Shown in pieces: positions 10,250 through 30,163 of a stretch of DNA of 64,000 nucleotides. Position 1 is the first letter of the stretch. Every line of letters begins with the position of its first letter. The DNA is from Eledone cirrhosa (lineage: Eukaryota). The notes beneath the pieces are model-generated. The model saw only the letters and a list, made by a program, of their open reading frames with translations, was not told the DNA's origin and searched no databases. Made by a program: the position numbers and the translations under genes. The stretch covers positions 43,648,001 through 43,712,000 of the forward strand of contig OZ024756.1 of NCBI GenBank assembly GCA_964016885.1, in the 5' to 3' direction.

Positions 10250-10576
10250 TTTTTACAGACTTTGGTGGGGATTTTTCGTTATTTGTGGCACATTGAAAAT
10301 TTGTTGCATCTTCGCAATTAGGGTTATTTTTCCAGCACTGATACTCTCCATTCCATCCCTTATTTGCTGGTATTTTACAGTCAAAACCAGATGTAACTTG
10401 TCCTCTCTGAAATTCTTTTGTACCTTTGTTGTAATTCCATTGTATAACCTGAGTTTCATTTCGTAGGAGTTTCAAGACAGTTACCAGATTTAAGTCACCA
10501 GCTACCTTACATGTTATATTTATTCTAGCTGATGATCCAACTTCAAATTCAGGTGATATAGATTCGATTGATACCC
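10250..10576 (-). CDS. IgSF gene copy A, V-like exon
   Basis: Reverse complement aligns without gaps to 29837-30163 with the same splice sites and an open frame: VSIESISPEFEVGSSARINITCKVAGDLNLV...NCEDATNFQCATNNEKSPPKSVK. Confidence 0.85.
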
Positions 10577-10744
10577 CTGTATATTAAATATGGAAGAGGA
10601 GAAAATGTTTAGACAAAGATTTATTTAAAAATAACATATATAATGGCAGGTAGAGAACAACTAAGACAGAAGAAAACAATAATAATAGGAAAAGGAGAGA
10701 AAATACAGTTGTGAATGATAAAATAAGGAGGAGAGAAAGAAAAC

Positions 10745-11372
10745 TGAAGATGATAAAAGAGAAAGAATAAGAAGATAAAAGAAGAAAAAGAAAAAGAAAA
10801 AGAAAAAGAAAAAGAAAAAGAAAAAGAAAAAAGAAGATAAAAGAAGATAAAAGAAGAAAAAGAAGAAGCAGAAAAAGAAGAAAAAAAAAGAAGATAAAAG
10901 AAGAAGAAGAAGAAGAAGAAAGAGAAGAAAAGAAAGAAGAAGATAAAAGAAAAAGAAGAAGCAGAAGAAGATAAAAGAAGATAAAAGCAGAAGAAAGAGA
11001 AGAAAAAGAAGAAAGAGAAGAAAAAGAAGAATAAGAAAAAGATAAAAGAAGAAAAAGAAGAAAAAAGAAGATAAAACAAGAAAAAGAAGAAGCAGAAAAA
11101 GAAGAAAAAAGAAGATAAAAGAAGAAGAAAGAGAAGAAGAAAAAGAAGAAGATAAAAGAAGAAGAAAGAGAAGAAGAAAAAGAAGAAGATAAAAGAAAAA
11201 GAAGAAAAAGAAAAAGAAGAAAAAGAAAATAAAAGAAGAAGAAAAAGAAGATAAAAGAAGAAGAAAAAGAAGATAAAAGAATAAGAAGATAAAAGATAAA
11301 GAAGAAAAAGAAGAAAAAGAAGAAGATAAAAGTAGAAGAAGAAGAAGATAAAAGAAGAAGAAAAAGAAGAAG
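10745..11372. repeat. Polypurine (GAA/GAAAAA/GATAAAA) tract
   Basis: Almost purely A/G on the + strand. Confidence 0.95.
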
Positions 11373-12232
11373 CATGTAGACTGATGGAGAGAAACATGGA
11401 GAATGTGACAGTAAAATGTGTATCTCCTTTGTTAGATTGGTTGCCCCATTAGAGGTAAGTCGGGTCAGGTGACCATGTCTTTCTCATATAGAACTATTTC
11501 TGGCTTGGTTTCTACAGCTGGATGCCCTTCCTAATGCCAACCATATTTGTAGTGTGGTAAGTACCTTTTGGCTGTGACTCCTACATGACCACTTTACAGT
11601 GTGTACTTGAAGAGTTTTGTTGTGTCTCCTACAAAACCACTTTAGAGTGTGTACTTGAAGAGTTTTGTCATGACACCTACACAACTATTTTACAGTGTAT
11701 ACTGGGTGTTTTTTGTTGTGTCACCTGCACGATCTCTTTACAGTGCATACTGGGTGTTTTTTGTCATGGCACCGACACAACCACTTTACAGTGAGTACTA
11801 GGTGTTTTTGTTGTGATACCTAAATGACCACTTTACATTGTTGGCTGGGTGTTTTTTGTTGTGACACCTACATAACCACTTCACAGTGTGGGATGGGTGT
11901 TTTTTGTTGTGACACCTACATGACCACTGTAGTTATATATACAAGGGTGACTGGTAACTCTGAAGATATGTGCTAACATTTATTGCATTTATAGAAAATG
12001 TTTAATGTTTTATGTTGGCAATTGAAGATTCAATCATGCTAGGAATTTTGTAGGTCCTTTCCAGTTATGACTTTTAGCATTAACACCAAACATCCTGCAA
12101 ACATTAATATATGCTGTATGATACCTACATTACACATATAAATTGAACATAGCCGATATACAAATTTTCCTGTCGTACACACCCAACCATTATGGAACAC
12201 ATATTGCATTACTATTTAGGAAATAAGAACAC

Positions 12233-27622: not shown

Positions 27623-28794
27623 ATGTATGCATGCACGTGTGTGTGTATAAACATATAGGCAGACAAATTATAAATACAGACGCTCGCAGGCGGGAGTATA
27701 AAAAGGGGGAGGGGGGTACTATAAAATGAAAAGGTATACTCATGTCCATGCACAAAAAAAAAAAATTCATATATATATATATATGTACTTATATATATGT
27801 ATGTACTTATATATATATGTATGTACTTATATATATATGTATGTACTTATATATATATCTATGTACTTATATATATATCTATATATGTGTGTATGTACCT
27901 ATATATATATATATAATTTTACGTCTGCTTTTCCCTGCTTGAAAGGGTTGGACTATATATATAGAGGGCCCGATAAGGATACATATATATCATCATCATC
28001 ATCATTTTATGTCCGCTTTTCCCTGATTGCAAGGGTGGGACGGGAACTGATTCTGGTTTGATTTCTACAGCTGGATGCCCTTCCTAACACCAACCTCATT
28101 TACAGTGAGTGCTGGGTGCTTTTTTTCCGTGGCGCTTACATGTCCACTTTACAGTGAGTGCTGGGTGCTTTTTTGCCGTGGCACCTCCACGACCACTTTG
28201 CAATAAGTGCTGGGTGCTTTTTTGCCGTGGCACCTCCACGACCACTTTGCAGTGGAATGATAGGGACCCCAGTCCCTATCATCTCATTTCTACAGCTGAG
28301 TAAACTGGAGCAATGTGAAATAAAGTGTCTTGCTCAAGGAAACAACACATCACCCGGTCTGAGAATTGAACTCACAACCTTTCGATTGCAAGGCCAATGC
28401 TCTAACCACTAAGCCATGTGCACTCTACATATATATATATATATATATATATATATATATATATATATATATATATATATATATATATATATATATATAT
28501 ATATATATATATATATATATATATATATATATATATATATATATATATATATATACATACATACATACATACATACATATATATATATATGTGTGTGTGT
28601 ATCAGAGATACATGAAATTACAAGTTATTTCCTTTTAAAAAATACTTGTGATGACACCCAGTGGTTCCAACATTTTTTCTATAGATCCTGGCAAGTACTG
28701 TTAGTGTCCTTGTCAGTTACAGCTTTTGGAATAATCTCCACAGTCACTTCAACTTCGGTTGGTTTGGTTTGTAAAATCTGTCCAGTGATTCTTT

Positions 28795-29305
28795 CCTAAG
28801 ACATTCTTACTACATGCCCCTAGTAATCAGAGCTGTGATCCCTCAGAGAAGTAGCAGCTCTATCTGGGATGTCTCTCTGATCTCTGAACTACGCACTCTA
28901 TTCAGTAACATTACTCCAAAGACCCTTCAGAAGATTCCCATTTCGAATCTTGTATTTGCAATCGTATTCTTTTGCGTATTACTCGAGATTCATGACCATA
29001 GGTTAGGGTTGGCACGAAATTGAAGATAGCGAGTTTGGCTTTTATGCCTACCTCCCTTCTTCAGATTACTGAATGCTGAAGCTTGCGCATTACTGCACCA
29101 GCTTCTGCAATTCTTGCACTTAATTCAGGCTCTTGTTTTCCATCACTGATGAGCATGAATCCCGAGATACTTGAACTTCTCTACCTGCTATAGTGGAGCT
29201 CGATTTACATGTAGAGTGCAGTGCGCAGATTTCCTTGAGAGGGCGAGTGTCTCAGCTTTCGCAACACTGGTTTTCATTCAGCCTTGCGGCACTCTGCATC
29301 AGACC
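28795..29305 (-). mobile_element. Decayed LINE RT C-terminal fragment (another RTE-type lineage)
   Basis: Reverse strand contains QVEKFKYLG-like sequence at about 29162-29188. Confidence 0.55.
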
Positions 29306-29836
29306 TATCAAGTTCAAATTAAACATATTTATTCTTTGTCCGAAATTCTCTAATTGAAGCTGATGTGTGAAGATGTACATTATTATCGGTGGTTTGGCAG
29401 TATCGGTAGAGTGTCAGACACCATGCTTTGCAGCACAGAGTTATGGCCCTTTGTGTTCTGAGTGCAAATCAGCCGAGGTTAACTTTGCCTTTCATCCTTA
29501 TGGAGTTGATAAAATAAAGTACCAGTAATATACTGGGTATTTGCTGGCCTTGTGCCAAAAGTAGAAACAAGTAGTAGTATCCAGTCTCCTGCAATGTCAT
29601 TTTGGACTCGCTGACTCTTTCTCCTCTTCTTTTTCTTATTTCTGTTTTCCTTTTTTCTTCTTTTTCCCTTTTCTTATTTCTCCTTTCTCTTTTCTTTTTC
29701 TTCAGTTTTCTTTCTCTCCTTTTCCTATTATTATTGTTTTCTTCTGTCTTAGTTGTTCTCTACCTGCCATTATATATGTTATTTTAAAATAAATCTTTGT
29801 CTAAACATTTTCTCCTCTTCCATATTTAATATACAG

Positions 29837-30163
29837 GGGTATCAATCGAATCTATATCACCTGAATTTCGAGTTGGATCATCAGCTAGAATAAATATAAC
29901 ATGTAAGGTAGCTGGTGACTTAGATGTGGTAACTGTCTTGAAACTCCTACGAAATGGAACTCAGGTTATACAATTGAATTACAACAAAGGTACAGGTGGA
30001 TTTCAGAGAGATGTAGTTAAACCTGGTTTTGACTGTAAAATACCAGCAAATAAGGGATGGAATGGAGAGTATCAGTGCTGGAAAAATAACCCTAATTGCG
30101 AAGATGTAACAACTTTTCAATGTGCCACAAATAACGAAGTGTCCTCACTAAAGTCTGTAAAAA
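29837..30163 (+). CDS. IgSF gene copy B, exon 2: V-like Ig domain
   Basis: Pyrimidine tract then atacag| acceptor, a|gtaagt donor, 327 nt, phase 1-1, open frame: VSIESISPEFRVGSSARINITCKVAG...NPNCEDVTTFQCATNNEVSSLKSVK. Has B-strand ITC and F-strand D-x3-F-x-C. The exon is conserved in the inverted copy. Confidence 0.85.

Follow-up and report, generated by a model that had tools for sequence, protein, structure and literature searches.

Organization of copies A and B

The window analysed here is a 64,000-nt stretch of the Eledone cirrhosa genome (3.0 Gb), C17:43648001-43712000 on contig OZ024756.1, which contains two inverted gene copies, A and B, each with a V-type immunoglobulin (Ig) exon (V_A and V_B, respectively) followed by a C-type Ig exon. 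A sequence-only reading of the window had proposed that V_A and V_B encode a candidate diversifying recognition receptor. We found that they belong to an array of related Ig genes on C17, on which diversifying selection very probably acts. The features of both copies are as follows (TM, transmembrane; X4, a public run described below; positions outside the window carry the prefix C17).

1..5970, minus strand: part of a ~7.6 kb near-identical block, from the C exon to just past the stalk, pairing with 54147-~62010 (plus strand)
5399..5713, minus strand: C-type Ig exon of copy A, 104 codons, 3 Cys
10250..10576, minus strand: V-type Ig exon of copy A, 108 codons, phase 1-1
16041..16240: assembly gap of 200 N between the inverted copies
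16241..16333, plus strand: 3' 93 nt of the leader (signal-peptide) exon of copy B, the same as in seven other array copies and spliced to V in X4, where a loose end falls before 29836
29837..30163, plus strand: V-type Ig exon of copy B, phase 1-1, with an AlphaFold2 (AF2) model and V-domain fold matches
54381..54695, plus strand: C-type Ig exon of copy B
61383..61424, plus strand: stalk mini-exon of copy B, 42 nt, phase 1-1, with a stalk-to-V junction in X4
C17:43647066 to 43640014, minus strand, left of the window: rest of copy A (stalk, second V, second C and tailless TM exon)
C17:43714629, 43715591, 43716457 and ~43797750, plus strand, right of the window: TM and tail exons of copy B

In copy B, the leader is followed by V, C, the 42-nt stalk, the TM exon and two short tail exons; the last exon lies a further 81 kb away. 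Its tail contains five Tyr, and the last exon ends in Ser-Ser-Val (Ser-Ala-Val in the Argonauta homologue), which we take to be a PDZ-type motif. This terminal exon has a single match in the genome, and B is the only full-length member found with it; local alignment within 65 kb gave no credible match to the remainder of the B tail. Copy A has the order V-C-stalk-V-C-TM, i.e. four Ig domains, and a 1-nt deletion after the TM leaves a short tail. Within the 664 kb mapped, the stalk mini-exon occurs in copies A and B only. It was also noticed that L035 (C17:43640142, 43639835) consists of the tailless TM exon of copy A and, 300 nt on, a degenerate copy resembling a glycosylphosphatidylinositol (GPI) signal; given this pair, alternative anchoring of copy A would be possible. 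The leader exon of copy A was not found and presumably lies hidden in the 200-N gap, which also cuts the leader exon of copy B, the 5' part being lost. All copies are on the minus strand except B, the orientation of which rests on the scaffold join across the gap. A simple flip of the contig left of the gap is unsupported, as the missing 5' leader part is in neither gap flank.

Comparison of the two V exons

Alignment of V_A and V_B reproduced exactly the counts and residue changes reported earlier: 327 nt, no indels and 23 substitutions in 16 codons, with the residue altered in 16/16. The accompanying statement that every substitution is non-synonymous stands when counted per codon, but not by pathway counting (NG86), which gave 21.3 non-synonymous and 1.7 synonymous steps (dN 0.089, dS 0.024). 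Both exons have AG/GT splice sites in phase 1-1 and, as had been noted, both retain all Cys (five) and the two sequons, NIT and N(E/G)T. Recounting also returned the earlier values for the flanking intron, about 3 differences in 235 nt (1/125 nt upstream and 2/110 nt downstream), and for the C exons (5/315 nt; four non-synonymous, one synonymous). The V exon is thus more divergent than its flanks (Fisher p=0.0007).

This contrast with the intron and the C exon, which had been read as evidence of selection, is confounded. Copies A and B are mostly 98-99.7% identical from ~230 nt before the C exon of A to 630 nt past the stalk, whereas the 3' half of the copy A V exon and the V-C intron follow the array members L005 and L002. 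Judged by these affinities, the C-stalk block arose by recent duplication or conversion, which makes copy A a mosaic; the low divergence of the C exons would reflect recent transfer and therefore provides no control for the V divergence. Furthermore, mean divergence among ten young paralogues was 0.7% in the downstream flank, 6.7% in the upstream flank and 10.7% in the V exon, and the downstream flank, being nearly invariant across all ten, is not a neutral clock. The V-C intron is 4.5 kb in copy A and 24 kb in copy B, the two being comparable only in short flanks.

The array on C17

A genome search with V_B, in which 20 candidates were scored, returned 17 V matches, all at C17:42.56-43.68 Mb, and a search with the C exon returned 16 matches at C17:42.56-43.70 Mb plus one weak, stop-ridden match elsewhere; three homologue queries revealed no credible family member outside the C17 interval. 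The two exons, treated earlier as a simple pair, are therefore members of a large paralogous array with 17 V and 16 C exons. These counts are lower bounds for a span of ~1.2 Mb, exons having been mapped over 664 kb and further pieces, with 42.77-43.19 Mb and parts of 42.56-42.70 Mb not covered. The other genes have one to three V-C pairs each, and they end in a short tail as in A, in a degenerate TM exon, or in an intact TM plus first tail exon; two old copies have the last arrangement without the terminal tail exon. The degenerate TM exons carry polar substitutions (mean hydropathy 2.1-2.4 vs 3.2-3.4) and look like GPI signals. L017 and L020 are broken and represent pseudogenes. The V exons of L002 and L006 (C17:43258843, 43425201) have a 45-nt in-frame internal duplication at the 5' end, with two possible acceptors.

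Family membership and domain fold

Searching 1.84 billion representatives with phmmer gave 30 matches, 23 of which could be named: two were unrelated repeat proteins and 21 were uncharacterised octopod proteins, from Octopus vulgaris, O. bimaculoides, O. sinensis and Argonauta hians. The octopod homologues share the leader, the V and C domains and a TM or GPI-like terminus with the array genes, and in some of them V-C units are repeated. Between copy B and Argonauta P0005, identity was 41% in the V exon, 34% in the C exon, 78% in the TM exon and 47% in the last exon. When 52 V domains were placed in a midpoint-rooted tree that excluded L017, the 16 intact V of this genome fell on one branch (100/100), and the array expansion is therefore considered lineage-specific. 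P0018 (O. vulgaris CAI9716300.1), which bears a TM, was located on a 226 Mb chromosome and the other named O. vulgaris members on a 73.6 Mb one, which suggests that P0018 is a translocated copy.

The V-like Ig assignment made earlier was borne out by the AF2 model of V_B, with a mean predicted local distance difference test (pLDDT) score of 91.2 and strands at 2-9, 17-23, 33-38, 41-49, 54-60, 64-66, 77-83 and 92-97, C' and C'' being present. Its top fold matches were VHH/VH, T-cell receptor V, nectin-2 D1 and PD-1 (Z 10-11, root-mean-square deviation 2.3-2.9 over 91-102 residues); the rows were tied within Z 1 and picked out no single family. Cys22 is in strand B and Cys95 in strand F, with three extra Cys, and strand C (33-38) carries Leu in place of the core Trp. 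We infer a 66-80 bond as well as one that joins Cys87 with the C domain at its spare Cys. Rabbit light chains provide a precedent for the latter bond; rabbit and disulfide-engineered light chains were among the weak profile matches (E 0.009-0.7), which fits this idea. A two-domain model of an O. bimaculoides homologue (pLDDT 84.9) showed two all-beta domains. Pfam detected ig in 3/22 members (best E 2.5e-4) and V-set in 1/22 (E 0.021), and on the three window exons gave sub-threshold ig and nothing more. The best PDB profile matches, antibody light chain and SYG-2, had E 7e-4 to 4e-3, and a word-index search for longer proteins returned 0/85 candidates with V_B and 1/6818 with the V profile. 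Taken together, the genes are predicted to encode an octopod-specific type I membrane Ig superfamily (IgSF) family with the layout leader-V-C-stalk-TM(-tail).

Selection and recombination

The V set comprised the 10 youngest of the 17 exons (six diverged ones and a pseudogene dropped), with five codons masked in L002 and L006 for the internal duplication carried by both, and the C set comprised 10 of the 16 after exclusion of A, B, the broken L020 and three old exons. Mean pairwise dN/dS was 0.119/0.061 = 1.93 for V and 0.107/0.046 = 2.33 for C. In our own implementation of M1a/M2a, the likelihood ratio test (LRT) statistic for V was 39, with 22% of sites at omega 5.2; it was 23 when double and triple hits were allowed and 22 with three separate trees. 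For C the value was 32.5. A recombination test was significant for V (p=2e-4), with no detectable signal in C (p=0.38), and the V site-model p-value of 3e-9 was dropped as stand-alone proof after recombination simulation. Nearly-neutral simulation reached the V ratio of 1.93 in 0/300 replicates. Under a fully neutral null with recombination, run in two settings, the C ratio was matched in 1/200 and 1/200, and the pooled V+C ratio of 2.10 in 0/200 under each setting.

Codon site models, as had been suggested, were thus run on the paralogues, and the pairwise ratios gave dN/dS > 1 for V and C, V alone being marginal. These results make it very likely that diversifying selection acts on the array; the proposal of positive selection holds for the pooled paralogues and not for the A/B pair by itself, and the claim that it is particular to the V exon fails, as the signal in the C exons is no weaker. 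The suggested clustering of changes in loops like the complementarity-determining regions (CDR) fared similarly. In the A/B pair, 5/16 changed codons are in the BC, C'C'' or FG loops (19/108 residues; p=0.12), but with more paralogues the mean number of amino-acid states per V site was 2.7 in CDR-like loops and 1.6 elsewhere (p=3e-6), a difference to be read with the caveat that loops tolerate drift too. Six of the 11 high-posterior V sites (25, 30, 53, 99, 100 and 101) are in these loops (p=0.004). All five Cys are present in 10/10 young V exons, which have no stops and no frameshifts.

Transcripts and variants in public runs

Of the four runs, X1-X3 are one sample, and X4, a run of a kind and tissue not on record, comprises 88 Mb of contigs. 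A run search listed no holder recorded as RNA, which counts as evidence in neither direction. The contigs (Logan) may be chimeric and drop variants, and 40 of 103 matches were listed. In X4, depth was 155-438 over the V exon and 0-7 over introns, and loose ends fit four junctions, namely the leader end, the stalk end, an A/B-type C start and an L030-type C start, each resting on one contig. X4 reads as RNA from spliced genes, including the four-domain layout of A, and the spliced transcript called for earlier is supported in this run.

Record 30 of X4 has seven differences from B over 30083-30163, as in A, and continues into an A/B-type C exon. Some X1-X3 contigs have the difference counts of L005, L006, L009 and L010, and others fit no assembly exon. 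A third V variant, nearest V_B, was present in all four runs (samples S1/S2); in X4 record 28 it has 6 differences from V_B over 233 nt, in five codons that all change the amino acid, and its difference count is unlike that of any of the nine other young assembly exons. Among the matches listed, the letter of A was found at 17/23 A/B sites, and several letters private to B (codons 11, 58, 90, 101 and 104) were absent from X1-X4. The L005-type letter at 30113 was absent from X1-X3 and present in X4 and the assembly. The run contigs neither confirm nor refute V_B in full.

Leader exon invariance

Further leader exons are at C17:43624683, 43596688, 43427738, 43261137, 42741071, 42726672 and 42626936. 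With the copy at 16241-16333, these make eight copies spanning 1 Mb that show no difference over the 105 nt of leader exon and donor, whereas the upstream DNA varies. In the seven complete copies, one site in 121 nt of the leader exon is variable compared with 27 in 173 nt upstream (p=3e-6). The leader is identical even before V L015, itself 42-46% identical to V_B; two other leader copies deviate (~95%). Repeated conversion and a regulatory role at the nucleotide level are candidate explanations.

Repeats and elements around the exons

Repeats flank the V exons:

10737..11372, minus strand: CTT-rich microsatellite upstream of V exon A
7321-10161 and 30273-32914: TATG and 31-40-mer arrays behind V exons A and B

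Elsewhere in the array, a 24-bp satellite makes up two V-C introns over ~108 and ~115 kb (C17:43441531-43550500 and 43271884-43389268), and a third such array, of at least 53 kb, passes through an assembly gap; all look like enlarged versions of the minisatellite that follows the V exons of the window. The V-C intron of B contains a 27-bp tandem repeat (49 copies, 33734-35025) with Thr/Pro/His-rich frames that are probably intronic. Also inside this intron, at 37673-42223, is a perfect 1392-bp inverted repeat (37673-39064 and 40832-42223), which flanks a 682-aa open frame (38784-40832, minus strand) with no Pfam match. The frame carries what we take to be reverse transcriptase-like and GIY-YIG-like motifs, and the element suggests a very young Penelope-type retroelement.

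Explanations for the array

The reading we favour, with a probability of about 0.45, is microbe-driven escape with decoys in a CEACAM-like receptor cluster. The tandem array would evolve by birth-and-death, gene conversion and diversifying selection from an adhesion or junction-type signalling receptor, the ectodomain of which was bound by microbes or parasites. The V domain would change to escape binding, and tailless or GPI-like copies would play the part of decoys or traps and supply a store of sequence patches. In the array itself, V exons swap patches, and V and C gather excess amino-acid change while the leader exon is nearly fixed. This explanation is preferred because a Tyr/PDZ receptor together with tailless or GPI-like copies, conversion, selection and turnover make up the CEACAM pattern.

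Several results weigh against it. Inspection of the tail exons found, among which an intermediate exon could be missing, revealed no canonical immunoreceptor tyrosine-based inhibitory or activation motif (ITIM/ITAM), and no activating paired receptor was found. The GPI-like ends hinge on T-run lengths, which may be sequencing errors. Several V paralogues are only 41-54% identical to V_B, whereas decoys are expected to stay receptor-like, and selection acting on C besides V would be less likely were ligand binding confined to the distal tip. In the A/B V pair alone the non-synonymous excess is short of significance (Fisher p=0.085); the V ratio alone was matched by the fully neutral null in 21/200 and 11/200 replicates (p 0.105 and 0.055); and the V LRT is inflated by recombination, 2/40 null replicates reaching at least 38.4.

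Next in order, and unlikely, is an Alr-like marker of self and non-self, in which a polymorphic V binds matching variants in trans, e.g. between skin and sucker, between haemocyte and tissue, or in wound fusion. The usual driver of such a system is missing, since octopuses live alone and form no colonies. The PDZ/Tyr tail would be in keeping with an adhesion receptor, but neither an Fn3-like spacer nor an ITAM/ITIM was found, unlike in Alr. The third V variant, with every one of its changed codons altering the residue, would fit polymorphism; it is, however, no phased allele and could be chimeric. The Alr genes are likewise unusual V-type IgSF genes that, together with pseudogenes, cluster in one interval (PMC9546547, in the part consulted). 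A self-avoidance cue between skin and sucker exists, according to a secondary mention (PMC9339708, in part), but that text terms it 'a chemical' and implicates no protein.

Relaxed constraint with gene conversion is somewhat less probable still. Redundant copies would drift, and multi-nucleotide conversion patches would mimic positive selection, with which the marginal A/B pair and V-only tests, the LRT inflation, the pseudogenes L017 and L020 and the tolerance of loops to change are all consistent. However, C exceeds the neutral null in both settings and lacks a recombination signal, V+C was never matched, and the five Cys and open frames of the young V exons are intact. In addition, dS (0.046-0.061) does not exceed the upstream-intron divergence of 0.067, while dN is 0.107-0.119.

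There is a slim chance that the array is a polymorphic recognition locus, in which an invariant promoter-leader cassette serves interchangeable, microsatellite-flanked V exons reshuffled by conversion, each octopus having its own V set and a single signalling copy reading self and non-self. If this is true, cephalopods would have a first molecular candidate for self-recognition at the level of the individual.

A reproductive recognition protein on the surface of sperm, egg or oviducal gland, driven by sexual conflict, is doubtful. Gamete-surface proteins in general have GPI-like or tailless Ig forms, selection on both domains and lineage-specific expansion, a profile seen here, but no expression pointer to gonad was found. 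Equally doubtful is a protocadherin/Dpr-like code for cell identity or wiring, in which cells would choose an ectodomain behind near-identical promoter-leader cassettes. The leader invariance, retained even before a highly divergent V, the V-C-TM-PDZ layout like that of adhesion receptors and a fasciclin-3-like Atlas lead (score 0.90) agree with such a code; on the other hand, identical promoters may just reflect conversion, ~10 genes offer little combinatorial power, and fast turnover between octopod species with ongoing V homogenisation would be unusual. An assembly artefact, with A and B as haplotigs joined inverted or their differences as errors, is very improbable. The 200-N gap, the ~99% identity of the shared block and the absence of several B-only letters among the matches listed would fit it. 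Against it, A continues without a gap into its second V-C pair and the stalk-to-V junction is present in X4, while B leads on to TM and tail exons. Moreover, other paralogues share most of the letters by which A and B differ, the letter of A appears in the runs at most sites among the matches listed, and the contigs drop variants, as the L005-type letter illustrates.

Comparison with known systems

The true homologues are octopod proteins: the LOC115221679-like ones (Argonauta GAB1601880.1, O. vulgaris CAI9716300.1) and the series O. vulgaris CAI97377xx, O. bimaculoides LOC1068789xx and O. sinensis LOC1187668xx. They share the leader, the FxC..CWK..C.D...Y/F.C pattern, the C domain and the TM or GPI-like ends, and most named ones are on one chromosome per species; they differ in being 26-41% identical, with the V of this genome on its own branch, and none has a functional name. 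In the Atlas, unnamed mollusc clusters at 0.94-0.95 are leads only. We consider the octopod IgSF cluster real and apparently undescribed, in agreement with the earlier remark that the family is not recognised in cephalopods. No published description was found in a search that did not extend to subscription papers and supplements, which could list these LOC genes. In the parts consulted, a survey of large cephalopod gene clusters lists them without the word 'immunoglobulin' (PMC9068888), a review of diversified invertebrate receptors has no octopus, cephalopod or squid (PMC11999971), and a second review has cephalopods only under haematopoiesis (PMC13428168).

The amphioxus VCBP and the gastropod FREP/CREP/GREP (VIgL) families are examples of diversified invertebrate V-type Ig domains (PMC13428168 and PMC9334734, both in part); they carry chitin-binding, fibrinogen or lectin domains, whereas here a stalk and a membrane anchor follow C. 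No chitin-binding Pfam domain was present in the 30 homologue matches, and the gene models have TM or GPI-like exons at their ends; neither homologues nor gene models contained a fibrinogen or lectin domain. The likeness to Alr1/Alr2 of Hydractinia lies in a single-interval family of V-type TM IgSF genes, barely detected by Pfam, with pseudogenes and polymorphic ectodomains; Hydractinia, however, has 41 genes compared with ~10 here, and V plus I-set compared with V-C (PMC9546547, in part). Moreover, instead of an Fn3-like spacer there is the 42-nt stalk exon and, in the Argonauta homologue, a short Pro-rich linker from C to TM. By domain content, the cluster is judged to be outside the Alr, VCBP and FREP families.

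The CTX/JAM/CAR proteins have a V-C-TM-tail layout with a PDZ motif and a V split over two exons. Copy B resembles these and the nectins in V-C-TM layout and C-terminal PDZ-type motif, and nectin-2 D1 is among the tied fold matches (Z 10.8); here, however, V is in a single 327-nt exon, and the PDB profile search gave no sequence match to CTX/JAM/CAR.

For the mammalian CEACAM cluster, with CEACAM1 and paralogues of the CEACAM3/5/6 type, the parts consulted of PMC2832619 and PMC8860441 describe a tandem lineage-specific expansion, a tyrosine-tailed V+C receptor, GPI-anchored and short-tailed copies arising from TM-exon mutation, and conversion with positive selection on V. The octopod array likewise has one Tyr-tailed receptor and GPI-like or short-tailed paralogues derived from the TM exon, their anchoring being deduced from sequence, and its V exons recombine, with selection robust for V and C pooled and marginal for V alone. 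It differs in its five-Cys V, repeated V-C pairs, selection on C as well, and the lack of an ITIM/ITAM or activating partner among the parts found. No CEACAM was present among the best 60 of 65 PDB profile matches, and among the fold matches CEACAM7 N (Z 12.6) was tied with many others. We regard the likeness as analogy, not homology. The array offers a concrete Ig receptor locus, apparently spliced and very probably positively selected, missed by standard Pfam annotation and with independent expansions across octopods, and it makes testable what the arms-race partner of octopus surface receptors is and whether octopuses carry a polymorphic self-marker. If the favoured microbe-escape explanation is correct, the array would be a clear case of convergence on the receptor-plus-decoy design of CEACAM.

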